This document shows, in pieces, positions 27,927 through 52,505 of a stretch of DNA of 64,000 nucleotides; the stretch's first letter is position 1; each line of letters opens with the position of its first letter. The notes below the pieces were generated by a model that saw only the letters and a list, made by a program, of their open reading frames with translations, did not search any database and had not been told where the DNA came from. The stretch comes from an uncultured Candidatus Marinamargulisbacteria bacterium (GTDB taxonomy: Bacteria > Margulisbacteria > Riflemargulisbacteria > GWF2-35-9 > DYQY01): positions 8,441-72,440 of the forward strand of contig CAYSAQ010000002.1 of the NCBI GenBank assembly GCA_964429235.1. Reading direction: 5' to 3'. The position numbers were made by a program, and so were the translations under genes.

Positions 27927-28013
27927 GGACAGGTGGCCGAGTGGCTAAAGGCGGCAGACTGTAAATCTGCTCCGGTTTCCGGTACGTAGGTTCGAATCCT
28001 ACCCTGTCCACCA
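27927..28013 (+). tRNA. tRNA-Tyr (anticodon GTA), class II with long variable arm, CCA encoded
   Basis: Hand-folded cloverleaf. Acceptor GGACAGG/CCTGTCC. Anticodon stem GCAGA/TCTGC with loop CTGTAAA. Variable arm CCGG-TTT-CCGG. T arm GTAGG-TTCGAAT-CCTAC. Ends ACCA. Confidence 0.9.
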
Positions 28014-31849: not shown

Positions 31850-32722
31850 ATGACAAAGAAGAAGATATTAGAATTTATAGAATTATTCCAAGAAACATAT
31901 ATTGTTTTATTGGATGATAATAAAAAACACAGTCCTATTAAAATAGGTGATTATATTGATTACAAAAAATGTAAAAGAATGAATGATAAAGGATACGGAG
32001 TGTTCTTTACCCCAAATGGTCATAAAAGGGGATGGAAAAAAGATAATCTTTCACAGATTAATTGTTGGTATGTTGATATAGATAAAGGCAGTAAACGCAG
32101 CCAATTGAAAACAATTAAGGCATCGCCAATTAGCCCATCTATAACAATTGAAAGTAAAAGAGGCTATCACTTATATTGGTTAGCTAAAGATGGAACAGCA
32201 TCTAATTTTACAAACATAGAAGAAGGTCTTATTGAATATTTTGGCTCAGACCCAACGACTAAGAAGACAAACCAGCTATTACGAGTGCCTTATTTTTATC
32301 ATAATAAAACACGTAATAGATTTAAGGTTAGAATAACAGAAGTGCAACCGGAACGAGTATATACAGAGGAAGAAATGATGTCGGCCTTCTCAAAAACTAA
32401 AAATGAAGTAATTGATAAGGAAATAAGAGAGCAGAAGAATTTGCACATTATAAAAGAGTACTATGAGATAAAAGAAGTGGACGAATTGTTTAAAGAAAGG
32501 GTAAGAAAAGAAAAGAGTAGAGAATATTTGCTAATATTATCTGGCACTCATTTCGTAAATTATGAGAAATATGATTTTATGCCAAATAAAGATGGGACCT
32601 CCCAAATACTTGTAAACGGAAAACCATCTTCATGCTGGCTAAGAAGGGATGGTTCGATAGGGTCTCATTCAGGTGGCGGACCAACCGTTATACAATGGAT
32701 TCAGTGGTTTCAGAACAAATAA
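31850..32722 (+). CDS. Primase-polymerase (AEP superfamily, prim-pol) domain protein
   Basis: AEP motifs in order: WYVDID (DxD), GYHLYW (sxH), LLRVPYFYHNK (R..P....K). GGAGGG Shine-Dalgarno upstream. Confidence 0.7.
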   Translation: MTKKKILEFIELFQETYIVLLDDNKKHSPIKIGDYIDYKKCKRMNDKGYGVFFTPNGHKRGWKKDNLSQINCWYVDIDKGSKRSQLKTIKASPISPSITIESKRGYHLYWLAKDGTASNFTNIEEGLIEYFGSDPTTKKTNQLLRVPYFYHNKTRNRFKVRITEVQPERVYTEEEMMSAFSKTKNEVIDKEIREQKNLHIIKEYYEIKEVDELFKERVRKEKSREYLLILSGTHFVNYEKYDFMPNKDGTSQILVNGKPSSCWLRRDGSIGSHSGGGPTVIQWIQWFQNK

Positions 32723-35886: not shown

Positions 35887-36672
35887 TTGAGCAAATGGTC
35901 TAATTCTTTGGTTAATAAAAGCATATATATTTGTAATCCATGCAAACATAAATACTTGTCTGACCGATCAAAAGCAGATGCTTGGAATTATCGTTTTAAC
36001 TGTTCTACTAATTTTGTGGACAGTGAACCACTGCTATGTACTTTGTGTGTGCAGGGGTGTATCATTATTATTATGAGTAAAGTTTTAATTGCAACTATAT
36101 ACCAACATTATTCAGTTATGGCTTCTTCTAATAAGTTTTCTATAGAGAAAATTATTTTACTAATAGATAACAATCCAGATGAAATTATGAATAACAATAT
36201 TAAGCTGATTGAGGAATCGTTAGGCTCTATCATGAAGATAGAGAAAGTTAAAACTGACTTATATGATATCGTTAATGTAGCAACTCAGGCGGTAGAAGTT
36301 ATAGATGGTCTTCCAGAAAAAGATGAGATTTATATAGACATTACTTCAGGGCGTAAGCCAAAGTCATTAGGCTTGTTGTTTGGAGCATATGCTAGAGCGA
36401 AAAAGATAAAAAGAATTTGCTATGTAACAGAAGATACTAAGCAGATAATTAGGCTTCCTAAAATGTCATACACCGCTAACAAAAATGAATGTTTTATTCT
36501 TCATCAGATTCAAAATAAACCAGGTATAAGCACTGTAGAAATAGCAGGCATGCTAGAGATTAACAAAAGCCTTGTTTATCGTTATATAAAAGAGCTTATT
36601 GAGATCGATGCGGTTGATAAAGAGAATGATAGTTTGGAGTTAACAGATTTTGGAAGGATATTGTTGTTGTGA
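35887..36672 (+). CDS. Csa3-like regulator: CARF-like Rossmann domain plus C-terminal MarR-type wHTH
   Basis: KVLIATIY, EKIILLID and IYIDITSGRKPKSLGLLFGAYA follow the CARF/Csa3 strand pattern with a D-x-T-x-G-x-K-type loop. The C-terminus is GISTVEIAGMLEINKSLVYRYIKELIE. The start is uncertain: TTG at 35887 adds a CxxC..CxxC zinc-ribbon-like extension, and ATG at 36073 is the alternative. Confidence 0.5.
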   Translation: MSKWSNSLVNKSIYICNPCKHKYLSDRSKADAWNYRFNCSTNFVDSEPLLCTLCVQGCIIIIMSKVLIATIYQHYSVMASSNKFSIEKIILLIDNNPDEIMNNNIKLIEESLGSIMKIEKVKTDLYDIVNVATQAVEVIDGLPEKDEIYIDITSGRKPKSLGLLFGAYARAKKIKRICYVTEDTKQIIRLPKMSYTANKNECFILHQIQNKPGISTVEIAGMLEINKSLVYRYIKELIEIDAVDKENDSLELTDFGRILLL

Positions 36673-39551
36673 CAACAAATTATCACGCAAAGTATTTTGC
36701 TCACGAAATAACCAAAGCTACCTCAGGGAATAGTACCGATAAGCTATCTATGTCCTTATTTAATGCATGTGTAGACTTAAACCCACACCAGGTAGAAGCT
36801 GCTCTTTTTGCATTTAGATCACCGTTGTCAAAAGGAGTGCTTCTTGCAGATGAGGTTGGCCTTGGAAAAACCATCGAAGCTGGACTTATTCTTTGTCAAT
36901 ATTGGGCTGAAAAAAAACGCAATCTCATTATTATTTGCCCTGCATCTCTAAGAAAACAATGGAGTCTTGAGTTATCTGAAAAATTTAATATTCCTAGTAT
37001 TATTCTTGAAACTAAGACCTATAACAATTTTATTGCCGATGGGAAAAATCCTTTTAATCAACAACAAGTTGTCCTAATGTCCTTTAACTTTGCAAACAAG
37101 ATGAAGTCTGAGATTAGAATCCATAAATGGAATTTAGCTGTAATAGATGAAGCTCATAAATTAAGAAATGTTTATAAACCTCAGAATAAAACTGGCCAAG
37201 GAATAAAATTTGCTTTAGAGGATACAAAGAAGATTTTATTGACAGCGACCCCACTTCAGAATTCATTAATGGAGTTATATGGTCTATCCACAATTATTAA
37301 CGACCATATTTTTGGTGATGCAAAATCTTTTAGGGCACAGTATGTTAATCATGGAGCAGATTTTGAAGAATTAAGAGAACGTTTAGTCTCATTCTCTAAA
37401 AGAACTCTAAGAAAAGATGTTCTGGAATATATAAAATACACTGAGCGAATTGCAATAACAAAAACATTCGAAGCAACTGATAAAGAGCAAGAGCTTTATT
37501 CAAAATTGTCCGAATTTTTGCAACGTGAGGATACATTTGCAATCCCTAAAAGCCAGCGAACATTGATTATTCTTGTCCTCAGAAAACTACTAGCATCATC
37601 TACCCATGCCATTATCGGAACATTAGATACAATTAAATCAAGATTGGAAGCAATTAAAGAAGATTTTTCAATATCTAAGAGGAAGTTAAACTTACAACTA
37701 GACGAAGATATGCAAGAACTTTTGGATGAGGAAGAAGATGAGATAGAGGAATTAAATGACAACGAAGAGTCAGATGAAGAAAAACAGTCTGAAGAAAATA
37801 TAATTAAAGAAAAGCTAGTCTTAATTGATAACGAGATAGCAGAAGTACAATCATTTATTGATATTGCTACAAATATTAAGATCGATTCTAAAACAAAAAA
37901 TTTAATATCAGCATTAGATGTCGGTTTCAGTGAAATGAATAAGGTAGGCGCAAAACGTAAGGCAATTATTTTTACCGAATCTCGAAGAACACAAGATTAT
38001 TTGAAAGAATTTCTTAATGAAAATGGATTTAAAGACAAAGTAGTTATATTTAATGGAACAAATAATTCAAAAGAGACGACTCAAATATATAAGCAATGGA
38101 TAGAAAAGAATAAGGATACGGGAAGGATGAGTGGCTCAACTACTTCGGATAAGCGTAATGCTATTATTGAACACTTTAGAGACTCTGCTGAAATTTTAGT
38201 TGCTACTGAATCGGCAGCAGAAGGCATTAATCTGCAGTTTTGCTCACTACTAGTTAATTATGATCTTCCGTGGAACCCACAGCGCGTAGAACAACGAATA
38301 GGCCGTTGTCATCGTTATGGTCAAAAACACGATGTTGTCGTAATAAACTTTTTAAATACACGTAATGAAGCGGATTGCCATGTATACACTTTACTAAAAG
38401 AGAAGTTTAATTTATTTAACGGTATTTTTGGAGCTTCTGATGAAGTGTTGGGCACAATAGAAAGTGGTGTTGATTTTGAAAAGAAGATACTTTCTATCTA
38501 TCAAACCTGTAGAACTCCTGAACAAATCGACACTGCATTTAACGCACTTCAAAAAGAAATGGATGAAAAAATTCAAAACAAAATGAAGCAAGCTAAGCGA
38601 GCAATACTAGAGCACTTTGATGAAGACGTACATGACAGGTTAAAGGTCAAACTCGATGAAACAAAACAAAACTTAAGTCGTTTGGAGAAAATGTTTTGGA
38701 CAACAACAAAAGTTGCCTTAAATCAATATGCTGATTTTGTTGAAAATGATTGTTCCTTTATGTTGCATCGAAAACCTGTTGGAACAGTATTAACTGGTCA
38801 TTATCAAATGATTTCAAAAGAACGTGATAATCCACAATCAAGATATTTATATCGGCTATCACATCCTTTGGGCGAATACGTTTTAGATAGAGCCAAAGAG
38901 CTTTCTACGGTTGGCGCTGAGTTGGTTTTCGATATATCCAAACATCCAACTAAAATATCGGTTATAGAAGCTTTTAAAAACAAATCTGGATACCTGATGC
39001 TTAATAAACTATCTATCGATTCGTTTGATTTTTCTGAGCATCTTTTATTTAATGGTTTCTCTGACAATAAAGATTTAGATCAGGAAACCTTGGAAAAATT
39101 ATTTCAACTTAACTGTACGGTAAACGATGGTGTAAATATTTCAAAAGAAGTAATAAAAAAACTCAATATTGATGCTAAATATCATGTTGAGGCAATTATT
39201 AATGGGTGTCGAAATAATAATAATGCTTACTTTATAGAAGAAGCAGATCGATTAGAAAAGTGGGCTGAAGATATGGTTAAATCAGCCGAAAAAGAGTTAA
39301 TTGACAACAAACGACTGCTCCGCGAAACAAGACGCCAAGAAAAACAATCCAAAACTTCAGAAGAACGTTTAGATTTTCAAAAGCAGATAAGAGATGCAGA
39401 AACAAAGCAAAGCAAATTACGACGTGAGATTTTTGATATTGAAGATGAAATCCACAAAAAAAGAGACCAGCTAATTAAAGAGCTAGAACAGCAAATGAAA
39501 GAGAAATCAAAACTTGAACAACTGTTTATTATTAAATGGAAAGTTATATAA
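36669..39551 (+). CDS. SNF2-family helicase/ATPase
   Basis: LLADEVGLGKTIEAG (motif I), VIDEAHKLRN (II), LLLTATPLQNS (III), and DLPWNPQRVEQRIGRCHRYGQ (VI). The GTG start overlaps the upstream stop (GTGA). Confidence 0.9.
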   Translation: MTTNYHAKYFAHEITKATSGNSTDKLSMSLFNACVDLNPHQVEAALFAFRSPLSKGVLLADEVGLGKTIEAGLILCQYWAEKKRNLIIICPASLRKQWSLELSEKFNIPSIILETKTYNNFIADGKNPFNQQQVVLMSFNFANKMKSEIRIHKWNLAVIDEAHKLRNVYKPQNKTGQGIKFALEDTKKILLTATPLQNSLMELYGLSTIINDHIFGDAKSFRAQYVNHGADFEELRERLVSFSKRTLRKDVLEYIKYTERIAITKTFEATDKEQELYSKLSEFLQREDTFAIPKSQRTLIILVLRKLLASSTHAIIGTLDTIKSRLEAIKEDFSISKRKLNLQLDEDMQELLDEEEDEIEELNDNEESDEEKQSEENIIKEKLVLIDNEIAEVQSFIDIATNIKIDSKTKNLISALDVGFSEMNKVGAKRKAIIFTESRRTQDYLKEFLNENGFKDKVVIFNGTNNSKETTQIYKQWIEKNKDTGRMSGSTTSDKRNAIIEHFRDSAEILVATESAAEGINLQFCSLLVNYDLPWNPQRVEQRIGRCHRYGQKHDVVVINFLNTRNEADCHVYTLLKEKFNLFNGIFGASDEVLGTIESGVDFEKKILSIYQTCRTPEQIDTAFNALQKEMDEKIQNKMKQAKRAILEHFDEDVHDRLKVKLDETKQNLSRLEKMFWTTTKVALNQYADFVENDCSFMLHRKPVGTVLTGHYQMISKERDNPQSRYLYRLSHPLGEYVLDRAKELSTVGAELVFDISKHPTKISVIEAFKNKSGYLMLNKLSIDSFDFSEHLLFNGFSDNKDLDQETLEKLFQLNCTVNDGVNISKEVIKKLNIDAKYHVEAIINGCRNNNNAYFIEEADRLEKWAEDMVKSAEKELIDNKRLLRETRRQEKQSKTSEERLDFQKQIRDAETKQSKLRREIFDIEDEIHKKRDQLIKELEQQMKEKSKLEQLFIIKWKVI

Positions 39552-39563
39552 CGGAGGGAAATT

Positions 39564-42500
39564 ATGAGCGAAAAAATTGAGGCACTAAGAAAAAAACTAA
39601 CAGAAATATTCCAATTGGATCAGACTGATTTAGATTTCGGTATATACCGAATTATGAATCAAAAAGCAGAAGAAATTACAGATTTCATGAACAACAGACT
39701 CCTTTCTCAAGTTAGCGAATCGTTTTCCCAGTTTAAATCAGACGGACAATCTGCTATACAACTAGAACTGGACAAGTTAATTGATACTCTAAAGCAAGCA
39801 GGAATGAACCCCGAAGATTCTCCTAAAGTACAAGATTTAAAATCAAAGCTAGCTGGAGCTGTAGATATTGCAGCTGTCGAAAATGAAGTTTTTTCCCATT
39901 TAACCAGTTTCTTTTCACGTTATTATGAAGGAGGAGATTTTTTATCTCTTCGTCGTTATAAAAAAGATGTCTATGCTATCCCCTATGAAGGCGAAGAAGT
40001 AAAACTTCATTGGGCAAATGCTGACCAGTATTATATAAAAAATTCAGAAAATTTTAGAGACTACTCTTTTAAACTTAATAATGGAAAAACTGTTCATTTT
40101 AAACTTATAGAAGCCGAAACTGAAAGAGATAATAATAAAACACAAGCTGATAAAGAACGTCGGTTTATTCTAATAAATGATGATCCCTTAATAATTGAAA
40201 ATGATGAGCTATATATTCGGTTTCAGTACATTGCAGATGAAAACAAGCTTACACAGGTTAAACATAACGAGCAAGCAATTCAAACTGTGTCTAGTTTAAT
40301 TCCTAAAGCGGAATTTGCTGGGTTTTTAGGACTTTTACAACTTAAGCCTACTGAAAAAAATAAAAAACGTACTTTGCTAGAAAAATATTTAAATGAATAT
40401 ACATCTAAATATAGCTTTGATTATTTCATTCATAAAGATTTAGGTGGATTTTTTAGAAGAGAGTTAGATTTTTATATAAAAAATGAAGTGTTATTTCTAG
40501 ATGACTTAGATGAAGATAATATCAAGTTTTCTTTAAGTAAAGCCAAGACAATTAAAGCGATTGCTAATAAATTTATTGATTTTTTGGAACAGTTAGAAAA
40601 CTTTCAGAAGAAAATCTGGCTAAAAAAGAAGTTTGTAGTAGATAGTGGCTACTGTCTAACAATCGATAACGTACCAGAAGATATGTATCCAGAAGTTATT
40701 GCTAATACAAAACAAATTGAAGAATGGGAAAGTCTGTTTACTATAAGTGAAATTAATGGGGATATGCTAACTATTTCAGGCAATATCTTGCTTAGTGATA
40801 AAGAAGATAAACAGAAAAAAATAGATTTCTTAAAACAAAATCCCTTTTTAGTTTTAGATACTAAATATTTTGATCAAGAATTTACTCAAAAATTACTTGC
40901 TTCAATCACGGATCTTGATGAAAAAACAAACGGACTTTTAATTAACGCAGATAATTTTCATGCATTAAACTTATTACAAGAAAAGTATAAAGAAAAAATT
41001 AAATGCACATATATTGACCCGCCATATAATACTGCCGCTTCGGAAATAATATATAAAAATAATTATAAGAATTCTTCATGGTTAACCTTTATTAATAGCA
41101 GATTAACAATGCTAAGTTCATTTGGTTTAAGTAGATCACCTCTGATGATAGCGATAGATGAATACCAACTAGTTGAACTAACTATGATGTTGGATAATCA
41201 ATATGGAAAAACGAATAGAGAGTTAATAGTAATTAATCACCATCCCCAAGGAGGCAAAGGTAAACATATCGCATATACTCATGAATATATGCTGTGCTAT
41301 ATCCCTGAAAATACATCAGCTTTTGTTAAAAAAATAACTGAAGCAGGTATAGAAGAGCGAAGTTTTATGAGAAGTGGTACTGCAGAGAGCAATTTTAGAC
41401 AATACCGTCCTAACAGTTTTTATGCTTTTATTGTTGATTCACAAACAAGTTCGATAATAGGCATAGAACAACCTCCAGAAAAAGAAGAACCCTATGATAA
41501 GGAGAAAACGAACGATGGATTTATTAGGATTTATCCCTTAAGTAGAGACGGACAAGAACGTGTTTGGAGAAATTCCTATGAGACTTGTTTGGAGCATATT
41601 AGTAACAAAAAAATTATTTGTAAAAATAATCGAACTATTTATCAAATCATTAATAACGAGGATAAATCAAATGCAATTTTCAGTAATTGGACTGATTCTA
41701 AATTTAATGCAGGACCAAATGGTACGAACTTATTGAGAGACCTACTAGGTGAACAAAATATTTTTTCATATCCTAAATCTATATATACTGTTGAAGAGTC
41801 TTTGCGAATAAGTGATGGAAGCAATCAAAATCAACCCATATTAGATTTTTTTGCTGGTTCTGGCACAACTGGTCACGCTGTTATCAACTTAAATCGCGAA
41901 GACGCTGGTAAGCGAAAATTTATTTTAGTAGAAATGGGGGCGTATTTCGATACAGTAACGAAACCACGTATCCAAAAGGTTATTTATTCTGAAAACTGGA
42001 AAAACGGCAAACCACTTTCGCGCAAAGGTTCTAGCCATATTTTTAAATACATTCGATTAGAATCTTATGAGGATGCCTTAAATAACCTTAAACCAAAAGA
42101 TACGAAACAAGCCCAGTTAGCATTAAAATCAGCCGATCCTTATGTGCAAGATCAATATATGTTGTCATATAAACTAGACTTCGAATATAAAGATAGTCTA
42201 ATTAATCTGGGGATGTTTGAGCACCCCTTTGATTATCAAATGAATATTTCTAACGGCACAGAAACTAAACTTGTTAAAGTTAATTTAATCGAAACTTTTA
42301 ATTATCTGATTGGTCTTTATGTTAAATCTGTTTATAACATCAATGATTTTCAAATAATAGAAGGAATGTCTCGCAAAGAAGAAAAAGTGTTGGTCATTTG
42401 GCGAGACATCAAAGAAAAAGACAACAAAACACTAGATGATCTGTTTAAAAAGCTTCGTGTGAATCCTAAAGATTTTGAATTTGATCGTATCTATGTAAAT

Positions 42501-42605
42501 GGTGACAATAACTTAGAGAATTTAAAACTTGATAAGGAAAACTGGAAAGTAACTTTGATCGAAGAAGAATTCAAACGACGCATGTTTGAAGTAGAAGATG
42601 TATAG
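39564..42605 (+). CDS. Beta-class N6-adenine/N4-cytosine DNA methyltransferase (type III Mod-like) with about 480-aa N-terminal extension
   Basis: Motif IV DPPY at 41016-41027 (aa 485) precedes motif I FFAGSGTTGHA at about 41846-41878 (aa 762), which is the beta permutation. GGAGGG Shine-Dalgarno upstream. Confidence 0.85.
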   Translation: MSEKIEALRKKLTEIFQLDQTDLDFGIYRIMNQKAEEITDFMNNRLLSQVSESFSQFKSDGQSAIQLELDKLIDTLKQAGMNPEDSPKVQDLKSKLAGAVDIAAVENEVFSHLTSFFSRYYEGGDFLSLRRYKKDVYAIPYEGEEVKLHWANADQYYIKNSENFRDYSFKLNNGKTVHFKLIEAETERDNNKTQADKERRFILINDDPLIIENDELYIRFQYIADENKLTQVKHNEQAIQTVSSLIPKAEFAGFLGLLQLKPTEKNKKRTLLEKYLNEYTSKYSFDYFIHKDLGGFFRRELDFYIKNEVLFLDDLDEDNIKFSLSKAKTIKAIANKFIDFLEQLENFQKKIWLKKKFVVDSGYCLTIDNVPEDMYPEVIANTKQIEEWESLFTISEINGDMLTISGNILLSDKEDKQKKIDFLKQNPFLVLDTKYFDQEFTQKLLASITDLDEKTNGLLINADNFHALNLLQEKYKEKIKCTYIDPPYNTAASEIIYKNNYKNSSWLTFINSRLTMLSSFGLSRSPLMIAIDEYQLVELTMMLDNQYGKTNRELIVINHHPQGGKGKHIAYTHEYMLCYIPENTSAFVKKITEAGIEERSFMRSGTAESNFRQYRPNSFYAFIVDSQTSSIIGIEQPPEKEEPYDKEKTNDGFIRIYPLSRDGQERVWRNSYETCLEHISNKKIICKNNRTIYQIINNEDKSNAIFSNWTDSKFNAGPNGTNLLRDLLGEQNIFSYPKSIYTVEESLRISDGSNQNQPILDFFAGSGTTGHAVINLNREDAGKRKFILVEMGAYFDTVTKPRIQKVIYSENWKNGKPLSRKGSSHIFKYIRLESYEDALNNLKPKDTKQAQLALKSADPYVQDQYMLSYKLDFEYKDSLINLGMFEHPFDYQMNISNGTETKLVKVNLIETFNYLIGLYVKSVYNINDFQIIEGMSRKEEKVLVIWRDIKEKDNKTLDDLFKKLRVNPKDFEFDRIYVNGDNNLENLKLDKENWKVTLIEEEFKRRMFEVEDV

Positions 42606-42630
42606 GTATAACGAAATGGAATCAATTTAG

Positions 42631-45600
42631 ATGGCAGCTAAAAAGAAAAAAAAGATCGATTTTCATAGAAAGCTGGTACTTTTTAAATACATATTAAGTT
42701 TATTTGAAACAAATACCATAGAAGGAATTGCTCCAAATATAAAAAATCCTGATTTGGAAGAGATCAATATAGAAAAAAGCAAAACTAATTTTCACTTAAC
42801 GATTACTAATCGCTTAATAGCTTTTGAGCATATTCCATTATCAAAACTAGAACAATACGATGATAATATTATTCGCCATACGCTACATATTCAAGATAAT
42901 CGACAGCAAAAATTAAAATGGAAATACTTCCAATATCTATCTCTATTATTTATTGAAATTTATTTAGATAAGTATTTTGAAGATCCCGCAAAATTATTAA
43001 TCAACATAAATGAATTTCGTAAGATATATAATGAAAAAGAGATTCCAGATGAACAAATAGCTCCGTATACCCTTTCTGATCTAAAAAAGTTAGCTTTTTG
43101 GAATGCCACTGGTTCAGGAAAAACGCTTCTTATGCACGTTAACATACTTCAATATAAACATTATTTAAATTTACATGGCAAAGAGAATGATTTAAATAAA
43201 ATAATACTACTTACACCAAATGAGGGTTTATCAAAACAGCACTTAGAAGAGTTCGCTTTATCAAGTTTAAATTCTGAAATTTTTAGTAAAGACCAAAATA
43301 TGTTTACAACTGTGTATAAACCAATAGAAATTATTGAAATAACTAAATTAAAAGACGAACATGGAGACAAAACAGTTGCTATCTCAGCATTCGAGGGCAA
43401 CAATCTTGTTTTGGTAGATGAAGGTCATCGCGGTTCAAGCGGAGAAGAGTGGAAAAGCAAAAGAGATGCGCTGTGTGCTGAAGGTTTCACCTTTGAATAC
43501 TCTGCAACTTTTGGCCAGGCTGTTAGAGCCTCGAACAAACAAGATTTAGAACAAGAATATTCTAAATGCATCATATTTGATTATTCATATAAATTTTTTT
43601 ATGGTGATGGCTACGGCAAAGATTATCGGATCCTAAACTTGTCAGATGATTCTAACGAAGAAAGTAGACAACAGTATCTTACAGCAAGCCTTCTTGCGTT
43701 TTTTCAGCAAATATCAATCTTTGAAGACAACAAACATGATTTTTCACCATTTTTATTAGAAAAACCGCTTTGGGTTTTTGTTGGTGGTAGCGTAAATGCT
43801 GTTCGTACAGAAAATAAAAGACAAGTTTCGGATGTCATTGATATTCTTCAATTTATAGGAGGCTTTGTCAAAGAGAAAGCAAGAAGTATTCGGTTCTTAG
43901 ATGATTTAATTAATCAAAGACACGGATTTTTAGATGCTAAGGGACTTAGTATCTTTGATAATAAATTTACTTATCTAATTGAGAAAAAAATATCTGCTGA
44001 AAAAATGTATTCACAAATAATTAGTACTGTATTTAATTGCCCAACCGATGGGGCTGATTTACATATAGAGAATTTAAAAGGTGCTGATGGCGAGCTTGGA
44101 CTACGTGTTGGCGGAAGTGATTACTTTGGAGTAATTAACGTCGGAGATTCGAACAAATTAATTAAACTCTGTGAAGCAAGTGGATTAAGTGCCAGTGACA
44201 AAGACTTTTCTGATTCATTATTTCATGGAATAAATAAAAAAGAATCGTCTATAAATCTTTTAATCGGTTCAAAGAAATTTACGGAAGGATGGAGTTCATG
44301 GCGTGTTTCGACGATGGGACTAATGAATATTGGTCGTACAGAAGGGTCTATGATCATTCAGTTATTCGGTAGAGGCGTAAGACTAAAGGGGTATAACTTC
44401 AGTTTGAAACGAAGTCGTTCTCAAAACTTTGTAAAAGAACCAAAAAATATAGATAAAGTTGAAACGTTAAACATCTTTGGTGTTAGAGCAGATTACATGA
44501 AAACATTTAGAGAATATTTAGAACAAGAAGGATTGCCTATAAACGACAACATAATTGAGTTTACGTTGCCGGTATTATCAAATTTGGGGCACGTTAAGAC
44601 ACCCCTTAAATATCCTCGTATTAAAGATGGCATATCCTTCAGGAAAGATGGTGGGCAAGTAGTATTAGAGTTGCCTCCAGACAAATTCATTATGAATCCT
44701 TTAATTTTAGACCTTTATTCTAAAGTACAGACGATTGAAGCAGTAAAAGGATATTCTGCTGAAAAAATAAAAAATGAAGAAGTCTTTAAATCTGATCATT
44801 TGGCTTTTATTGACACAGAAGAAATTTTTCTTGAATTAGAGCGGTATAAATATGAAAAAGCTTGGTATAACCTGAGTTTTGACAAAGAAACCATTGTTGA
44901 AATTTTAGGGCATCATAGTTGGTATATATTAAAAATACCTAGTTCCGATATGTATTTTAATGATTTTTCAAAAATTTATCGTTGGCGGGAAATAGCAAAA
45001 GTGCTGATGCAAAAATATATAGAGAGATTTTATAATTATAAGCGAAACGAATGGGAAGCGGAGCATCGAGAAATGGCTATATTAGACGATAATGATCCAA
45101 ATATGGTCAAAGAGTACGTTTTTTATATCCATGATTCCATGACAGATATAATCAGCAAGTTAAATCAGTTAAAAGATGAAATCAAAAAAAGACAAATCCT
45201 TGATATTGAATTTGGGAATTTTCAGACTATAAGCTGGTTAAACCATTTATATCAACCGTTAGTCTGTTTTGATAAAAGCAATGCAAATTTAAAAGTTACC
45301 CCAGTACAACTAAATGATGATGAAGCTCTATTTGTTAGTGATTTGAAAAAATATTATGAAAACAATATATCCTTTTTTAAGGATAAAGAATTGTACTTAC
45401 TCAGAAATCAAGGGAAAGGTCGTGGCGTTGGATTCTTTGAAGCTAATAATTTCCATCCTGACTTTGTCCTATGGTTAATAAAGGATGGCAAGCAATACGT
45501 CTCGTTTATAGATCCCAAGGGTCTAAATTGGTCTACAGGTATCAATGATTCCAAAATACAATTCCACAAAACCGTTAAGGATGTTGAAAAAGAAATGAAG

Positions 45601-45762
45601 GATTATAGTGTCATTTTAAATTCGTTTATTATTTCTAATACTGAATTTGAGCAATTAACGTTACGCCGAGAACATATTTCTAAACAGGAATTCGAGAATA
45701 ACAATGTTATTTTTCAAGCAGATAGCAACTATATTGAGAAGATATTGGTGAACGTGAAATAA
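42631..45762 (+). CDS. Type III restriction Res-like SF2 helicase with C-terminal PD-(D/E)xK-like motif
   Basis: Walker A ATGSGKT (43105-43125). DEGH (43417-43428). SAT. QLFGRGVR. The C-terminus has HPD (D944) followed by FIDPK (D961, K963). Confidence 0.8.
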   Translation: MAAKKKKKIDFHRKLVLFKYILSLFETNTIEGIAPNIKNPDLEEINIEKSKTNFHLTITNRLIAFEHIPLSKLEQYDDNIIRHTLHIQDNRQQKLKWKYFQYLSLLFIEIYLDKYFEDPAKLLININEFRKIYNEKEIPDEQIAPYTLSDLKKLAFWNATGSGKTLLMHVNILQYKHYLNLHGKENDLNKIILLTPNEGLSKQHLEEFALSSLNSEIFSKDQNMFTTVYKPIEIIEITKLKDEHGDKTVAISAFEGNNLVLVDEGHRGSSGEEWKSKRDALCAEGFTFEYSATFGQAVRASNKQDLEQEYSKCIIFDYSYKFFYGDGYGKDYRILNLSDDSNEESRQQYLTASLLAFFQQISIFEDNKHDFSPFLLEKPLWVFVGGSVNAVRTENKRQVSDVIDILQFIGGFVKEKARSIRFLDDLINQRHGFLDAKGLSIFDNKFTYLIEKKISAEKMYSQIISTVFNCPTDGADLHIENLKGADGELGLRVGGSDYFGVINVGDSNKLIKLCEASGLSASDKDFSDSLFHGINKKESSINLLIGSKKFTEGWSSWRVSTMGLMNIGRTEGSMIIQLFGRGVRLKGYNFSLKRSRSQNFVKEPKNIDKVETLNIFGVRADYMKTFREYLEQEGLPINDNIIEFTLPVLSNLGHVKTPLKYPRIKDGISFRKDGGQVVLELPPDKFIMNPLILDLYSKVQTIEAVKGYSAEKIKNEEVFKSDHLAFIDTEEIFLELERYKYEKAWYNLSFDKETIVEILGHHSWYILKIPSSDMYFNDFSKIYRWREIAKVLMQKYIERFYNYKRNEWEAEHREMAILDDNDPNMVKEYVFYIHDSMTDIISKLNQLKDEIKKRQILDIEFGNFQTISWLNHLYQPLVCFDKSNANLKVTPVQLNDDEALFVSDLKKYYENNISFFKDKELYLLRNQGKGRGVGFFEANNFHPDFVLWLIKDGKQYVSFIDPKGLNWSTGINDSKIQFHKTVKDVEKEMKDYSVILNSFIISNTEFEQLTLRREHISKQEFENNNVIFQADSNYIEKILVNVK

Positions 45763-45786: not shown

Positions 45787-45861
45787 ATGCATAACTTAAT
45801 TGATATGATCATAACAATAACAGAATTACATGCACAAAGAATACGTGAATTATTGGAGTAA
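45787..45861 (+). CDS. Possible 24-codon micro-ORF (MHNLIDMIITITELHAQRIRELLE)
   Basis: Near-consensus AAGGAGG 4 nt upstream of the ATG, in the 121-nt gap between the Res-like gene and recQ. Confidence 0.35.
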   Translation: MHNLIDMIITITELHAQRIRELLE

Positions 45862-45883: not shown

Positions 45884-47716
45884 ATGAGTTACCCTAAATC
45901 CCCAACAGAAATACTTAGTCAGGTTTTTGGCTACAAAACATTTGTAGGCAAACAGAATGAGATTATTGACCATGTTCTTAGTGGCAAGGATGCATTAGTT
46001 CTAATGCCTACGGGTGGCGGAAAATCTCTTTGCTTTCAATTGCCTGCGCTCATTTTTGATGGGGTTACTATTTGTATATCTCCATTAATAGCTCTAATGC
46101 AGGATCAGGTATCAGCTTTAAAGAACTTAGGAATAAATGCAGAATTTATAAATTCCAGTTTAAATTATTCTGAAAAGAAAGTTATTGAGGATAAAATACT
46201 AAAAAATGAAGTAGATTTAGTCTATGTGTCACCTGAAAAACTGAATATGGGTGATTTTTTATCTCTTTTAAAGCAATCTAATATTTCATTATTTGCCATA
46301 GATGAAGCTCACTGTGTTTCTCAGTGGGGTCATAATTTTAGACCAGAGTATACTAAATTCTCATCCTTAAAAGAAGATTTTCCAAATGTTCCAAGAATTG
46401 CTTTAACTGCTACAGCAGATGAGATCACAAGGATTGATATTATAAAGAACCTCAATCTTGAAAATGGTAGAGTATTTGTTTCTAGTTTTGACCGTCCTAA
46501 TATTAAGTACATAGTAAATACAAAAGATAAAGAAAAGAAACAATTATTAGATTTCATCAAAACAAAGCATGAAAATAATTCTGGGATCGTTTACTGCATA
46601 TCCAGAAAAAGAGTAGAAAATATTGCAGAATACTTAGCTGGAGAAGGATTTAATGCATTTCCATATCATGCTGGCATGGATAATAAAACTAGAGCAATCA
46701 ATCACGATAAATTCATTAAGGAAGAAGGCGTTATTATTGTTGCTACAATAGCTTTTGGCATGGGCATAGACAAGCCGGATGTAAGGTTTGTGGCACATCT
46801 TGATCTACCAAAAAGTATCGAAGCATATTATCAGGAAACTGGTCGTGCAGGACGAGATGGATTGCCATCCGATGCTTGGATGGTATATGGATTGAAAGAT
46901 ATTTTCCAATTACGTCAATTTATAGAAAATTCTGATGCAGCTCAAAACCAAAAAAGAGTTGAACATCAAAAATTAAACTCTTTGATTGGCTATGTGGAAG
47001 CTATTAGCTGTAGGAGGATAATTCTATTAGATTATTTTGGAGAAGAGTCAGCTGAAAAATGTCAAAATTGTGATACTTGTAATGAACCACCGATAGTATA
47101 TGACGCTACTATCGACGTACAAAAAGTATTATCTTGTATTTATAGAACACAGACAGAACGCTATGGGTTTGGTGGCAACCATATAATAAATATTTTACTT
47201 GGGAAAAACGATGAAAAAATAAGAAGATTTAATCATGATGAACTTAGCACATTTGCTATTGGGCAAGATGTTTCAGAGCCACAGTGGCGATCTATTATTA
47301 GACAAGTAGTTATTCTAGGATTTGTAGATATTGATATGCAACACTCAACATTAAAGATAAATGATGAAGGAATGAAGATATTGAAAAAGGATGGCCCTAA
47401 AGTTGAATTAAGGAAGGTAATCTTGAAAAGCAAAGCTTCTAAGAAAAAATCTAAATCAGCAGCAATAACCACCCTTACAGATTCTGATGATGTAGAATTA
47501 TTTAGTAAATTAAGAGCACTTCGTCTAGAGTTTGCTCGTAAAGAGAACATGCCTCCATATATTATTTTTAATGATCGCACCTTAAATGAAATGACTATAT
47601 CTAAACCAAAGAGTTTAGACGAAATGTCTGAAATATCAGGCGTGGGTCAACATAAATTACAAAAATATGGCAATGATTTTTTAGAAATTATAACAGAGCA
47701 CAGATATAATGAATAA
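45884..47716 (+). CDS. recQ: ATP-dependent DNA helicase RecQ (full length with Zn, RQC and HRDC regions)
   Basis: PTGGGKSLCFQLPAL. DEAHCVSQWGHNFRPEY. Cys cluster CRR..CQNCDTC. HRDC-like tail (LRALRLEFARKENMPPYIIFNDRTLNEM..GVGQHKLQKYG). Confidence 0.9.
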   Translation: MSYPKSPTEILSQVFGYKTFVGKQNEIIDHVLSGKDALVLMPTGGGKSLCFQLPALIFDGVTICISPLIALMQDQVSALKNLGINAEFINSSLNYSEKKVIEDKILKNEVDLVYVSPEKLNMGDFLSLLKQSNISLFAIDEAHCVSQWGHNFRPEYTKFSSLKEDFPNVPRIALTATADEITRIDIIKNLNLENGRVFVSSFDRPNIKYIVNTKDKEKKQLLDFIKTKHENNSGIVYCISRKRVENIAEYLAGEGFNAFPYHAGMDNKTRAINHDKFIKEEGVIIVATIAFGMGIDKPDVRFVAHLDLPKSIEAYYQETGRAGRDGLPSDAWMVYGLKDIFQLRQFIENSDAAQNQKRVEHQKLNSLIGYVEAISCRRIILLDYFGEESAEKCQNCDTCNEPPIVYDATIDVQKVLSCIYRTQTERYGFGGNHIINILLGKNDEKIRRFNHDELSTFAIGQDVSEPQWRSIIRQVVILGFVDIDMQHSTLKINDEGMKILKKDGPKVELRKVILKSKASKKKSKSAAITTLTDSDDVELFSKLRALRLEFARKENMPPYIIFNDRTLNEMTISKPKSLDEMSEISGVGQHKLQKYGNDFLEIITEHRYNE

Positions 47717-50700
47717 AATAGCATTTATTGATACAGAAACAGACGCTAAAGGTAAGAGATTACTTGATATTGGGGCTGTGGATCAGGATGGTTCAAAGTT
47801 TCATTCAAATTCAACCGTAGAACTTTTAGACTTTATAAGTCGTAACGATTATTTATGTGGACATAATATCATTAAACATGACTTGCCATGTATAGAAAAA
47901 GTAACTAGCACAGATTTATCTGGGGCATTAATCATTGATACGTTATTTTTATCTCCATTGTTATTTCCAACAAAGCCATATCACGCTCTATTAAAAGATG
48001 ACAAACTACAAACAGATGAGTTAAATAATCCTTTAAATGACGCAATAAAGGCAAAAGATCTTTTTTATGATGAAGTATCAGCATTTCAAGATATAGATAA
48101 TGATTTAAAACAGATATATTTTATTCTATTAAAAAACAAAGAAGAGTTTTGGGGTTTCTTTAACTTTGTAAATTACTCATGTCCTCTCATTGATATCAAA
48201 ACAATTATTTATGAAAGGTTTAAAGATAAAATTTGCCTAAATTCAAATTTAGAAAAGATAATACAAGAAAACCCTGTAGAGTTAGCGTATTCTTTAGCTT
48301 TAATTAATACTAATAGTAGATATTCTATAACTCCTCCATGGGTAATAAAGAACTATCCTGGAGTTGAAAGAGTCCTTTATTTATTAAGAGGCAATCCTTG
48401 CTTACAGGGATGTTTATATTGTAATAAATCACTTGATTCTAGAGCTGGTTTAAAAAAGTATTTTGGCTTTGATTCTTATAGATCATTTGAAGGCAAATCT
48501 TTGCAGGAGCAAGCTGTTAATGCTGCTATTAATAATAAATCTATTGTAGCAGTTTTTCCAACTGGTGGGGGAAAATCTGTAACATTTCAAGTGCCAGCTT
48601 TAATGAGTGGAGAAAATGTAAAAGGTTTAACAGTGGTTATTTCGCCATTACAGTCGTTAATGAAGGATCAAGTAGATAATTTAGAAAGGTCAAATATTAC
48701 TGAAGCTGTAACTATTAATGGTTTATTAGACCCAATCGAAAGGGCAAACTCTTTTGAGAGAGTCGAGAATGGTGCTGCATCTATGCTGTACATCTCTCCA
48801 GAATCTTTGAGGTCAAGATCTATTGAACGTCTCTTGCTTGGACGAAACATTGTTCGTTTTGTCATTGATGAGGCACATTGTTTTTCTGCCTGGGGACAGG
48901 ACTTTAGAGTTGATTATCTTTACATAGGAGATTTTATAAAATCATTACAAGAAAAGAAGAATATGGAAAGCAGTATTCCAGTTTCTTGTTTTACAGCGAC
49001 AGCAAAGCAAAATGTAATTCAAGATATTAAAGATTATTTCCAAGAAAAATTATCACTACAAATGGAAACATTTAATACAAACCCATCAAGAACAAATCTC
49101 ACCTATAAAGTAATCCCAAAAAATAATGATGAAGATAAATACGAGACATTAAGAAGCCTCATCGATGGAAAGAATTGTCCTGCCATAATTTATGTTTCAC
49201 GAAAAATTAGAGCATATAAGATTGCAGAACGATTATCTAGTGATGGATATTTGGCTAAGCCGTATCATGGGGGAATGGACAAAAAAGAAAAGTCTGAAAA
49301 CCAGGATGCATTTGTTCGTGGTGATGTGGATATTATGGTTGCTACATCTGCTTTTGGAATGGGAGTAGATAAAAAGGACGTTGGAATGATAATCCATTAT
49401 GAGATATCAGACTCGCTTGAAAATTACATTCAGGAAGCTGGCAGAGCTGGGAGGGATGAGAATATTGAAGCTGATTGCTATGTTCTATTTAACGAAGAAG
49501 ATTTAAGTAAGCATTTTATATTATTGAATCAATCTAAATTAAATATTAAGGAAATTCAACAAATATGGAAAGCAATAAAGGATATAACTCGTTTTAGGTC
49601 CAGTGTTTCAAACTCAGCTTTAGAAATTGCAAGAAAAGCAGGCTGGGATGACAGTGTTTTCGATATTGAATCGAGAGTTAAAACTGCAATTTGTGCTTTA
49701 GAAGAAGCCGGTTATCTTAAAAGAGGGCAAAATATGCCTAGAATATTTGCTAACAGTATCCTTTCTAAGAATGCAGAAGATGCCGTTAATAGGATAAATT
49801 CATCAGGAATATTTAATGATCGACAAAAGCAGCATGCAGTTAGAATCATAAAAAGTCTTCTATCAAATAAAAACACAAAAAATCCTAATGATGAAGTTGC
49901 TGAATCAAAGGTTGATTATATATCAGATAGGCTGGGGATTGTAAAAGAAGAAGTTATTAATGTGATTAATCTTTTGCGTGAAGCCAAAATATTAGCAGAT
50001 ACAAAAGATTTAACAGCGTTTATTAAAAAAGGTGAAAAGAAAAATAGGTCTTTAGCTATTGTGCATTCAATTAGTAAGATTGAGAAATTTTTGGTGTCAC
50101 AATTTGAGCAGGAAGAGAAATCCTTTCATATAAAAGAATTAAATGAATTAGCGGAGGAGAATGGATGCGCTGATGTGTCTCCAAAAAAGATCAAAGACAT
50201 AATTAATTTTTGGGTAATAAAAAATTGGATTAAGAGAAAACAAAATGATTTTTCTAAAAATTCTCTTACAATTATATCTAACTATTCAGGCACGGAATTA
50301 GAAGAGAAATTAAATAAGAGATATGAATTAGCTTGTTTTATAGTCGATTACTTATATGTAAAAAGTAACGAAGCCCCATCTCCAATAGATTGTGTTGTAG
50401 AAGAAGTTTTAGTTGAATTTTCAGTTCATGAGTTAAAAGATGCATATGAGAAAAACCTATTAATTAAGCTAAGCGTAACTATACCAGATGTAGAGGATGC
50501 TTTATTTTATTTATCAAAAATGGATTCAATAAAAATTGAAGGAGGCTTTCTTGTTATATACAATAAGCTTACAGTTGAAAGGTTGGAGCAGGACAATAAA
50601 AGAAAATATAAAGCAGATGATTATAAGAAACTTAATCTGTTCTATGAAAATAAAGTTCAGCAGATTCATATTGTAGGGGAATATGCGAAAAAAATGCTTA

Positions 50701-52505
50701 GTGATTATAAGGAAGCATTACAGTTCGTAGAGGATTACTTCCAGCTTAATTACAGTTCTTTTTTAAATAAATATTTTAAAGGTAGTAAACAAAAAGAAAT
50801 AAAAAGAAACATAACCCCTGCGAAGTTTAAACAACTTTTTGGTGAATTGTCTCCAGCACAATTAGCTATTATTAATGATGACAGTTCTCCTTATATTGCA
50901 GTAGCAGCTGGCCCAGGAAGTGGTAAAACAAGGGTATTAGTTCATAAACTTGCATCTTTATTATTGATGGAAGATGTAAAGCACGAGCAATTATTAATGG
51001 TAACTTTTTCAAGAGCGGCTGCAACAGAATTTAAGAAACGATTAATAGGATTAATTGGTAATGCTGCCTGTTTTATTGAAATAAACACTTTCCATGCTTA
51101 TTGTTTCGATTTGCTAGGAAAAGTTGGTTCACTTGAAAAATCACAAAGCATTATAAATGCGGCTGTAGAAAAGATTAAGAATAATGATATAGAACAAAAT
51201 CGTATTACAAAGGCAGTTCTAGTGATTGATGAAGCTCAAGATATGGATAGTCATGAATTTGAGTTAATAAAAGTATTAATGGAACATAACGAAGATATGA
51301 GAGTAATTGCTGTCGGAGATGATGATCAAAATATATATGAATTCAGGGGTGCAAGTTCTCAATATTTGGAGCAATTCATTACAGAGAAAAATGCCAAAAA
51401 AATTGAATTGGTTGAAAACTATCGGAGTAAGTCAAATCTTGTTGAATTTACAAATAAGTTTGTTGAAAAGATTCATAATCGTCTTAAAATAACTCCAATT
51501 ATTTCTAACACTACGGAAACAGGAGTGGTAAAGCTAATTAAGTATGCAAGTTCTAGTTTAATTACCCCAGTAGTTAACTATATAGCAAAATTAGAACTGA
51601 GAGGCACAACATGTATTTTAACTCATAAAAATTATGATGCATTGCAAATAGCAGGATTATTACTACAGAAAAATTTGCCTGCAAAGCTTATTCAAACAAA
51701 TGATAGTTTTAGTTTATATAATATGTTAGAAATCCGCTATTTTATTGAACAACTTAATTTTCGTGACGATAAATTTATTATCAGCGAAGAAAGTTGGGAA
51801 TTTGCTAAAAGGAAGTTGTGGGGAACATATCAGGAAAGCCCTAAAATTGATATATGTATCAATCTAATTAATGCTTTTGAGCAAAGCACGCCAAAAAAGA
51901 AATATCAATCAGATTTCGAGGTTTTTATAAGAGAATCAAAGCTTGAAGACTTTACTATTACGAACAGAGACACTATTTTTGTTTCAACGATTCATAAGGC
52001 AAAAGGTAAAGAGTTTGATAATGTGATATTAATGTTAAATGATTTTAGTTTGGATAGTAATGCTAGAAAGCGAGAGCTGTATGTCGCAATGACAAGAGCA
52101 AAACAAAATCTGATAATTCATTTAAACGGGAACTATTTAAATGACATTACCTGTCAAAACATAGATCAAGAAAATGATAATTATCAGTATGAGACATCAA
52201 ATTTGTTGATTATGCATCTATCATATAGAGACATTTGGTTGAGTTATTTTATTTCAAGGCAGGATATGGTTTCTAAGCTTAAAAGTGGAGGTATACTGAA
52301 AGCTGATAGTGAAGGGTGCATAGATAGCAATGGTAATTATATAGTTAAGTTCTCAAATAGTTTTAAAGAAAGAATAATAGGCTTTAAGAATAAAGGATAT
52401 GAGCTAATAGAGTCTAAAATAAATTATATTATATACTGGCAACCAGAAGAAAATTCTGATGAAATAAAAATAGTATTACCGGAGTTAAGGTTTGTGAAAA
52501 AATGA
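47709..52505 (+). CDS. Triple-fusion protein: DnaQ-like exonuclease + RecQ-type helicase + UvrD/REP-type helicase (1598 aa)
   Basis: N-terminus FIDTETD and GHNIIKHD (DEDD Exo I/II). FPTGGGKSVTFQVPAL and DEAHCFSAWGQDFR (RecQ core, aa 280-600). AAGPGSGKT at 50909-50929, VIDEAQDM, GDDDQNIYEFRGA, VSTIHKAKGKEFD and YVAMTRAK (UvrD core, aa 1060-1470). Confidence 0.85.
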   Translation: MNKIAFIDTETDAKGKRLLDIGAVDQDGSKFHSNSTVELLDFISRNDYLCGHNIIKHDLPCIEKVTSTDLSGALIIDTLFLSPLLFPTKPYHALLKDDKLQTDELNNPLNDAIKAKDLFYDEVSAFQDIDNDLKQIYFILLKNKEEFWGFFNFVNYSCPLIDIKTIIYERFKDKICLNSNLEKIIQENPVELAYSLALINTNSRYSITPPWVIKNYPGVERVLYLLRGNPCLQGCLYCNKSLDSRAGLKKYFGFDSYRSFEGKSLQEQAVNAAINNKSIVAVFPTGGGKSVTFQVPALMSGENVKGLTVVISPLQSLMKDQVDNLERSNITEAVTINGLLDPIERANSFERVENGAASMLYISPESLRSRSIERLLLGRNIVRFVIDEAHCFSAWGQDFRVDYLYIGDFIKSLQEKKNMESSIPVSCFTATAKQNVIQDIKDYFQEKLSLQMETFNTNPSRTNLTYKVIPKNNDEDKYETLRSLIDGKNCPAIIYVSRKIRAYKIAERLSSDGYLAKPYHGGMDKKEKSENQDAFVRGDVDIMVATSAFGMGVDKKDVGMIIHYEISDSLENYIQEAGRAGRDENIEADCYVLFNEEDLSKHFILLNQSKLNIKEIQQIWKAIKDITRFRSSVSNSALEIARKAGWDDSVFDIESRVKTAICALEEAGYLKRGQNMPRIFANSILSKNAEDAVNRINSSGIFNDRQKQHAVRIIKSLLSNKNTKNPNDEVAESKVDYISDRLGIVKEEVINVINLLREAKILADTKDLTAFIKKGEKKNRSLAIVHSISKIEKFLVSQFEQEEKSFHIKELNELAEENGCADVSPKKIKDIINFWVIKNWIKRKQNDFSKNSLTIISNYSGTELEEKLNKRYELACFIVDYLYVKSNEAPSPIDCVVEEVLVEFSVHELKDAYEKNLLIKLSVTIPDVEDALFYLSKMDSIKIEGGFLVIYNKLTVERLEQDNKRKYKADDYKKLNLFYENKVQQIHIVGEYAKKMLSDYKEALQFVEDYFQLNYSSFLNKYFKGSKQKEIKRNITPAKFKQLFGELSPAQLAIINDDSSPYIAVAAGPGSGKTRVLVHKLASLLLMEDVKHEQLLMVTFSRAAATEFKKRLIGLIGNAACFIEINTFHAYCFDLLGKVGSLEKSQSIINAAVEKIKNNDIEQNRITKAVLVIDEAQDMDSHEFELIKVLMEHNEDMRVIAVGDDDQNIYEFRGASSQYLEQFITEKNAKKIELVENYRSKSNLVEFTNKFVEKIHNRLKITPIISNTTETGVVKLIKYASSSLITPVVNYIAKLELRGTTCILTHKNYDALQIAGLLLQKNLPAKLIQTNDSFSLYNMLEIRYFIEQLNFRDDKFIISEESWEFAKRKLWGTYQESPKIDICINLINAFEQSTPKKKYQSDFEVFIRESKLEDFTITNRDTIFVSTIHKAKGKEFDNVILMLNDFSLDSNARKRELYVAMTRAKQNLIIHLNGNYLNDITCQNIDQENDNYQYETSNLLIMHLSYRDIWLSYFISRQDMVSKLKSGGILKADSEGCIDSNGNYIVKFSNSFKERIIGFKNKGYELIESKINYIIYWQPEENSDEIKIVLPELRFVKK

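Follow-up and report, generated by a model that had tools for sequence, protein, structure and literature searches.

Eco86II and BspHIV are characterized systems of type III restriction and modification (R-M) that produce N4-methylcytosine (m4C), and in both of them an extra, highly conserved gene for a helicase-like ATPase lies directly 5' of mod (Murray et al. 2021, PLoS One; PMC8259958). This ATPase is nonhomologous to Res, has no nuclease motif, and is colocalized with Mod and Res in over 500 genomes; the Mod of Eco86II, acting alone, methylates one strand of the asymmetric sequence GAGCC, giving m4C (PMC8259958). Here, we describe a locus with this gene order in a stretch of 64,000 nucleotides (the window) from an uncultured Candidatus Marinamargulisbacteria bacterium (assembly GCA_964429235.1, contig CAYSAQ010000002.1, positions 8,441 to 72,440 of the forward strand). 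The locus is very probably a three-gene type III R-M system of the Eco86II/BspHIV group, apparently carried on an element integrated beside a tRNA-Tyr gene. The SNF2-mod-res arrangement itself was published in 2021 (PMC8259958), and the window supplies a further member of this group.

Organization of the locus and relationship to Eco86II

Three codirectional open reading frames (ORFs) on the forward strand make up the locus. They encode an SNF2-family ATPase of 960 amino acids with a GTG start (36669 to 39551; matched in Pfam, PADLOC, and NCBIfam), a type III Mod-type methyltransferase of 1,013 amino acids (39564 to 42605; PF01555, PADLOC, PDB profile, and Foldseek), and a Res-like protein of 1,043 amino acids in which a superfamily 2 (SF2) ATPase is joined to a PD-(D/E)xK nuclease at the C terminus (42631 to 45762; PF04851 and PADLOC). 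An initial annotation of this DNA, made by a model from the letters and their ORFs, had given the same coordinates, and these and all the motifs it listed were verified. It had also described the SNF2 gene as translationally coupled in front of mod; the gene does stand in front, but the two do not overlap, as a gap of 12 nucleotides containing a GGAGG Shine-Dalgarno sequence separates them. The gap between mod and res is 25 nucleotides. The catalytic motifs of SNF2, Mod, and Res are intact, with residues invariant or nearly so in the alignments of 34 to 36 homologs in which motif conservation was judged.

We found the Eco86II locus in Escherichia coli NCTC86 (NZ_LR217818.1, 4332797 to 4342214), where it encodes an SNF2-related protein of 963 amino acids, a methyltransferase of 1,040, and a DEAD/DEAH helicase of 1,126. 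In BLASTP comparisons, the window SNF2 protein is 50% identical to WP_000580534.1 of NCTC86 over residues 2 to 960, Mod is 40% identical to M.Eco86II over residues 4 to 579 and 43% over residues 750 to 1011, and Res is 40% identical to R.Eco86II over residues 2 to 1039. This full-length homology of all three proteins makes the window a new member of the published Eco86II/BspHIV group; the comparison was made with the proteins of Eco86II, and BspHIV enters here through its published description. The locus has the defining feature of the group, a gene for an SF2 ATPase without a nuclease motif directly 5' of mod, together with the features of type III systems, namely, a beta-class Mod with a target recognition domain (TRD) between its motifs and a downstream Res with an SF2 ATPase and a PD-(D/E)xK motif. 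It also shares with Eco86II the order ATPase-mod-res, the long Mod with both terminal extensions (1,013 amino acids versus 1,040), and the same motifs.

The two loci differ in the specificity domain. The corresponding region of the window Mod does not align with M.Eco86II, and the window system would have a recognition site of its own. The slot for a regulator is filled in the window by a CARF and winged helix-turn-helix (wHTH) gene overlapping the SNF2 start, whereas NCTC86 carries, upstream of SNF2, a small helix-turn-helix (HTH) gene in truncated form. Moreover, the window host has a G+C content of about 33%, and its cluster lies next to genes for tRNA-Tyr and a serine recombinase, unlike that of Eco86II. 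Two features had been called atypical in the initial annotation, the SNF2 gene in front and the long N-terminal extension of Mod. Both are real, but the novelty that this implied is absent, since both were already published as hallmarks of Eco86II and BspHIV (PMC8259958).

Some variation was seen among the E. coli copies of the triad. In F9792 (locus L237), the annotation places a frameshift in the SNF2 gene, with Mod and Res intact, and near-identical 9.4-kb copies (NCTC86, which is locus L241, and others) differ in length by 1 to 2 nucleotides (9,417 to 9,419 nucleotides). Behind the frameshift and the length differences may lie errors of sequencing, decay, or a switching of the ATPase on and off.

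Co-conservation of the SNF2, mod, and res genes

The sample anchored on Mod comprised 80 genome loci from many phyla, at 42 to 57% identity. A full-length SNF2 homolog is found directly upstream, on the same strand, in 59 of the 72 loci with enough upstream sequence (82%), and Res is found downstream of Mod in 67 of the 68 with enough downstream sequence. In the samples of loci anchored on SNF2 (80 from metagenomes and 63 from IMG/VR), a type III Mod adjoins SNF2 in 62/68 and 48/54 of the loci with room for it, respectively (110/122, 90%). Furthermore, mirror-tree analysis of 46 loci and the window gave pairwise distance correlations of 0.83 for SNF2 and Res, 0.83 for Mod and Res, and 0.67 for SNF2 and Mod (Mantel P = 0.001). 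At least 8,000 Mod and at least 8,000 Res homologs were scored. The triad is present in 151 of 5,426 complete E. coli genomes (at 80% coverage or more), and it is also plasmid borne in Priestia, Klebsiella, and E. coli. As far as comparison of sequences can tell, the three genes are shown to travel and diverge together across phyla, and a functional link of the SNF2 gene to Mod and Res, as opposed to a chance neighborhood, is supported. The initial annotation had proposed exactly such a linked SNF2 gene in front of a Mod/Res pair and had added that a lack of co-conservation would speak against it; co-conservation was instead found from both sides.

The SNF2 clade, at 36 to 56% identity and usually over all 960 residues, partners three type III families. 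The first has the long Mod and long Res of the window. The second has a Mod of about 560 amino acids and a Res of about 890 (PADLOC PDLC03636/PDLC03648), and in the third these sizes are about 660 and about 960 (PDLC03634/PDLC03647), with a Res that is a clear homolog of the EcoP15I Res (Res of locus L156 against 4zcf_C, E = 8e-60). These other two families were seen in metagenome and IMG/VR loci (L133, L149, L156, L157, and L184 to L233). Since the same SNF2 clade precedes them too, the ATPase would be a general type III accessory and not one specific to long Mods.

In many loci, unrelated defense genes were also observed inserted between SNF2, mod, and res (L003, L004, L008, L029, L032, L134, L149, L157, and L164). 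They include AAA_21 plus DUF4276, GmrSD pairs, DUF1016/YhcG, AbiU-like genes, LmuB/mad3-like SMC ATPases, and OLD, and an 874-amino-acid AAA_21 protein is also among the genes inserted within operons of the group. These embedded passengers vary locus by locus. The nearest relative on a long contig (L164; JGI contig Ga0643557_000308), with a Res 75% identical to that of the window, has no CARF-wHTH gene, and DUF1016 and GmrSD genes occur both within its operon and behind it. A typA/bipA gene stands a few hundred bases away from its triad; the typA gene of the window is at 7502 to 9310.

The Mod methyltransferase

In Mod, the catalytic motif IV DPPY (residues 485 to 488; 41016 to 41027) precedes FAGSG, the S-adenosylmethionine-binding motif I (residues 763 to 767; 41850 to 41864), and both are invariant. 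This is the beta permutation typical of type III Mod, as initially proposed. In Pfam, only PF01555 (N6_N4_Mtase) was matched, and in PADLOC, the MTase_III model PDLC03646 scored 826 bits. A profile of the Mod family matched, over positions 440 to 841, the PDB entries 6k0w, 7dsu, and 4zcf (E = 1e-45 to 5e-36), that is, the Mods of Helicobacter pylori, Mbo45V, and EcoP15I. The same three structures were the best Foldseek matches of an AlphaFold model of Mod (predicted local distance difference test score [pLDDT], 78; E of about 1e-16), with other beta-class methylases ranking well below. Both the profile and the model thus mark the core of Mod as genuinely type III.

This core is flanked by two extensions. 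The N-terminal one, of about 450 to 480 amino acids (residues 1 to 470; 39564 to 40973), had been reported initially with a length of about 480 residues, and it is both real and strongly conserved, with a column conservation of 0.72 to 0.86 in blocks 121 to 160 and 281 to 400, with many invariant residues. The C-terminal one, of about 200 amino acids (residues 800 to 1013), is conserved as well and was absent from the initial annotation. Between motifs IV and I, residues 521 to 760 (41124 to 41843) show a column conservation of 0.33 to 0.43 versus 0.65 to 0.86 in the flanks, and this hypervariable stretch is, as expected, the predicted TRD. Neither Pfam nor PDB sequences gave a match to the N-terminal 450 or the C-terminal 200 residues, and whole-chain Foldseek searches, whose matches are dominated by the methyltransferase core, gave no family for the extensions.

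The possibility that the N-terminal extension is a docking domain for SNF2 was considered and rejected. The extension is kept in loci without SNF2 and is missing from the short Mods that have SNF2, and hence it is not simply an SNF2 adaptor. Regarding the base that is modified, DPPY fits both N4-cytosine and N6-adenine methyltransferases. However, the characterized relatives make m4C, and by analogy with them N4-cytosine would be a better guess than N6-adenine for the window Mod.

The SNF2 ATPase

The SNF2 protein contains GLGKT (residues 64 to 68), DEAH (160 to 163), TATP (192 to 195), and QRIGRCHRYGQ (542 to 552). The first two, Walker A (36858 to 36872) and Walker B (37146 to 37157), are invariant in 34 homologs. 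The Pfam domains are SNF2-rel_dom and Helicase_C. In PADLOC, the DrmD model scored 672 bits, ahead of HmaA with 196 bits, and the NCBIfam model DISARM_DrmD_b (NF038318) scored 680 bits over residues 30 to 682 only, under its cutoff of 950. The related comparison with NF038317 gave 271 against a cutoff of 610, and the top PDB sequence match was RapA. The motor spans residues 30 to 680, and the remaining C-terminal 280 amino acids, which end in a charged helical tail, matched no Pfam family, and searches gave no fold for them; neither a nuclease nor any other Pfam domain was found in the protein beyond the motor. By these profile scores, the ATPase is a member of an SNF2/DrmD-like clade whose motor is closest to the DrmD models, and its homology and position identify it with the extra helicase-like ATPase known from systems of the Eco86II type. 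Murray et al. left that ATPase unclassified in this respect (PMC8259958), and the SNF2/DrmD-like classification is made here.

Res and the points against a type III assignment

Res contains GSGKT (residues 161 to 165; 43111 to 43125) and DEGH (263 to 266; 43417 to 43428), both invariant, followed by SAT (291 to 293), GRGVR (580 to 584), and the nuclease motif PD (943 and 944) with D961-P-K963 (45457 to 45519). P943, D944, D961, and P962 show no variation in the alignment of homologs, at least 90% of which keep K963. Pfam recognized ResIII (PF04851) over residues 149 to 294, and the PADLOC model REase_III (PDLC03654) scored 741 bits. Searches of Pfam, PDB, and Foldseek found no family or fold for the termini.

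It is important to consider several observations that weigh against reading the locus as a type III system with a working SNF2 component. Res had no match among PDB sequences even when a 34-sequence profile was used. With hhalign, the probability was 2% against an EcoP15I-like Res and 74% against another Res family, the latter over the helicase N-lobe only. An AlphaFold 2 model of Res (pLDDT, 77) matched generic SF2 motors only, and 4zcf_C was not in the top 50 fold matches. At the levels of sequence and model, Res thus appears to have no detectable specific relationship to the EcoP15I Res beyond the SF2 motifs. Consequently, the term "type III" rests on Mod, on the architecture, and on the Eco86II data, where R.Eco86II is treated as type III by REBASE and by Murray et al. 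(PMC8259958). The initial description of the downstream protein as Res-like, with SF2 motifs and a PD..DxK motif, therefore stands by architecture only, and a specific affinity to the EcoP15I Res does not. On the side of SNF2, 13 of the 72 Mod/Res loci have no adjacent SNF2 gene; these are mostly scattered among SNF2-bearing relatives, which suggests repeated loss or replacement. Neither the cleavage by Eco86II in vitro nor its methylation in vivo needs the ATPase, and native, partially purified Eco86II (Mod plus Res) still cut downstream of its site without it, in a site-directed cleavage reported as partial only (PMC8259958). Any role of SNF2 in restriction is, as a result, hypothetical. Finally, a scan for promoters and terminators was uninformative, with 80 promoter-like sites against 94 expected from shuffled sequence and 9 terminator-like sites against 8.

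Possible role of SNF2 and alternative explanations

In a three-gene type III system of this kind, a Mod dimer would read its own asymmetric motif of 4 to 6 bp and methylate one strand. At unmethylated sites, a Mod2-Res complex would use ATP and switch to sliding, and it would cut through the C-terminal PD-(D/E)xK domain of Res. In the most speculative step, SNF2 would be an accessory double-strand DNA translocase acting only in vivo, which might strip proteins off incoming DNA or help complexes meet. This accessory role is our preferred guess, by analogy with DrmD of class 1 DISARM and BrxHII of type 3 BREX.

The points just listed against a working SNF2 component also favor a different explanation, in which SNF2 is a self-contained defense or housekeeping passenger at the head of type III operons and takes no part in R-M. 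Eco86II cuts in vitro and M.Eco86II methylates, both without the ATPase (PMC8259958), the 18% of Mod/Res loci without SNF2 are scattered among SNF2-bearing relatives, and type III operons do host unrelated defense genes (AAA_21 plus DUF4276, GmrSD, DUF1016, AbiU-like, LmuB-like, and OLD). However, SNF2 is always in the 5' position on the same strand, has no effector domain of its own, and in about 90% of its clade stands beside a type III Mod, with three Mod/Res families, unrelated to one another, among the partners. SNF2 and Res diverge in step as closely as Mod and Res do, whereas the embedded passengers differ from locus to locus. We therefore regard a mere passenger as improbable. A chance neighborhood in this genome, beside an ordinary two-gene type III system, is hardly credible at all. 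Mod and Res alone would fit the type III gene pattern, and annotation pipelines label SNF2, Mod, and Res independently, but the genes occur together at rates of 82% and 90% in samples that number three and are independent, from many phyla and from plasmids as well as chromosomes, and this, together with the Mantel test and the more than 500 genomes of the published survey (PMC8259958), rules it out.

A reduced or variant class 1 DISARM, consisting of DrmD, a methylase, and a helicase, would explain why the best PADLOC and NCBIfam matches of SNF2 are DrmD models, and the order SNF2-methylase-helicase resembles drmD-drmMI-drmA. The two also share the position of the ATPase ahead of the methylase and a presumed methylation-based distinction between self and nonself. 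Nevertheless, the NCBIfam score of SNF2 stays below the DrmD equivalog level and covers the motor only, and the methylase is of the type III Mod family PF01555 and not of PF13659, as DrmMI of class 1 is. The effector here is a Res-type helicase-nuclease with no DrmA match in PADLOC, and a scan of neighboring ORFs from 28 to 55 kb turned up no DUF1998 (DrmB) or PLD (DrmC) gene, in agreement with the initial annotation, and no DrmA match either. Likewise, 160 related loci are non-DISARM, with a type III Res as the partner, and neither DrmA nor DrmB nor PLD was seen in the related loci examined. Class 1 DISARM was rejected on these grounds, and a variant of it is very improbable. At the other extreme, SNF2 could be an obligatory third subunit in vivo, with the machine of the window switched on by a CARF regulator that senses a second messenger. 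We consider this unlikely. If it were true, SNF2 would change how type III enzymes find or cut foreign DNA, for instance by clearing protein-coated or replicating phage DNA or by loosening the two-site orientation rule, and the locus would be an R-M system under nucleotide second-messenger control.

Under the preferred reading as a three-gene type III system, the window extends a large, cross-phylum group, which poses the question of what a dedicated SNF2 motor adds to an enzyme with an ATPase of its own. This question is sharpened by the DrmD-like character of the SNF2 clade, by the three or more unrelated type III families that it serves, EcoP15I-like ones included, and by its codivergence with Res. 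Type III R-M thereby joins DISARM and BREX in the theme of an SNF2 protein paired with a methylase. Tractable systems are available in NCTC86 and on the IncF plasmids of E. coli and Klebsiella, one IncF copy lying at 36053 to 29496 of NZ_CP018955.1.

Comparison with other known systems

The classical type III systems EcoP15I and EcoPI have, like the window, a beta-class Mod with a central TRD, mod upstream of res, and a Res with an SF2 ATPase and a C-terminal PD-(D/E)xK domain. In contrast, the window Mod is about 370 amino acids longer, with extra N- and C-terminal domains, a third gene for an ATPase is present, and the characterized relatives of the window system make m4C and not N6-methyladenine.

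Type 3 BREX and the BREX-related (BR) and ARMADA systems also combine a RapA/SNF2-type ATPase with an N6/N4 amino-methyltransferase in a defense operon (PMC12839542, PMC12458937). Their partners, however, are PglZ, YprA helicases, and HKD nucleases, whereas the window has Mod and Res, and the window SNF2 has at most about 30 amino acids ahead of the motor and no N-terminal extension, unlike theirs. The BREX-related systems and ARMADA were rejected because their methylases are of the gamma-class PglX/YeeA type and that of the window is a type III Mod. Hma also has three genes with an SNF2-type helicase and a methylase, with HmaB being a 5-methylcytosine methyltransferase and HmaC an AAA ATPase (PMC8565338). 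It was rejected as well, since Mod and Res match neither HmaB nor HmaC in PADLOC but only the MTase_III/MTase_II and REase_III models. The initial annotation had compared the locus with DISARM and Hma and had proposed a PADLOC check. That check returned DrmD, MTase_III, and REase_III as the best models for the three proteins; the resemblance to both systems is genuine, and membership in either is not borne out, with DrmA/DrmB and HmaB/HmaC unmatched.

In MADS (the methylation-associated defense system), MAD6, MAD7, and MAD8 are mandatory, and the methylase reads a type I-like bipartite motif. This system was rejected because its composition differs, the "mads1" label that PGAP gives the small HTH gene upstream of SNF2 in the E. 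coli homologs being the name of a small HTH family only; among the best 25 PADLOC matches listed for each window protein, none was to a mad family. One E. coli locus that carries this kind of label (L235; NZ_CP014583.1, 2972014 to 2982559) has a small HTH gene, SNF2, Abi, AIPR, a Mod of 568 amino acids, and a Res of 912 amino acids. Arrays of this type occur in about 29 complete E. coli genomes, on an island beside tRNA-Sec. PGAP calls the small HTH protein "MAD1" and annotates no other MADS gene in the stretch, and the naming is potentially misleading. Literature searches by accession (WP_004197497 and others) returned no match.

The CARF-wHTH regulator

A Csa3-like CARF-wHTH regulator of 199 amino acids, absent from the initial annotation, is encoded on the forward strand directly ahead of SNF2 (36073 to 36672), and its stop codon overlaps the GTG start of SNF2 by 4 nucleotides (GTGA). 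The start was fixed at the ATG at 36073 because homologs are 198 to 201 amino acids long. In PADLOC, the CARF3 model PDLC01849 scored 196 bits with the full profile covered. In Pfam, HFX_2341_N and HTH_24 were matched, and TIGR01884 fell just under its cutoff. The family is small (49 matches), and its homologs were examined on seven other contigs, representing six distinct contexts (L168 to L171 and L238 to L240). Several of them head R-M-type operons, namely, a type I R-M system (L168), a DUF1016 nuclease with an N6_N4 methylase (L169 and L170), a PLD-SNF2 protein with an Eco57I-like methylase (L171), and another SNF2 plus type III system (L239). With the exception of L239, the regulator does not accompany the triad elsewhere; in other loci, its place upstream of SNF2 is taken by small HTH genes of MerR/excisionase-like or XRE-like type. 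No cas genes were found beside it in the contigs examined, and no CRISPR array was found in the window. CARF-like regulators of a different family had been reported close to R-M systems in 2014 (PMC4012209). The regulator probably controls transcription of the operon, and its occurrence at operon heads suggests ligand-controlled expression of restriction systems.

Putative mobile element and neighboring genes

Upstream of the defense cluster, a tRNA-Tyr gene (27927 to 28013, forward strand; ARAGORN) abuts a large serine recombinase gene (27999 to 29459, reverse strand), whose Pfam domains are Resolvase, Recombinase, and Zn_ribbon_recom. Hypothetical genes and a RepB-primase-like ORF (31850 to 32722) follow before the cluster itself. 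The combination of tRNA-Tyr, serine recombinase, and RepB-primase-like ORF suggests that the defense cluster is cargo of an integrated element, and the tRNA-Tyr/recombinase junction (27927 to 29459) is likely the left end of the element that carries the system. No attachment-site direct repeat of the tRNA-Tyr end longer than 12 nucleotides was found, nor was a right boundary.

On the 3' side of Res (45884 to 54007), we observed a RecQ gene (above the TIGR01389 cutoff), a gene for a 1,598-amino-acid fusion of RecQ-like and UvrD-like helicases, and a gene for a RecB-like nuclease of the TM0106 family, with gene ends that overlap by 8 and 4 nucleotides. Other loci with the triad do not share this trio, which may be a second, separate defense or repair module. 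The 121-nucleotide gap between Res and RecQ holds an ORF of 24 codons (45787 to 45861) with a strong ribosome-binding site, AGGAGG.

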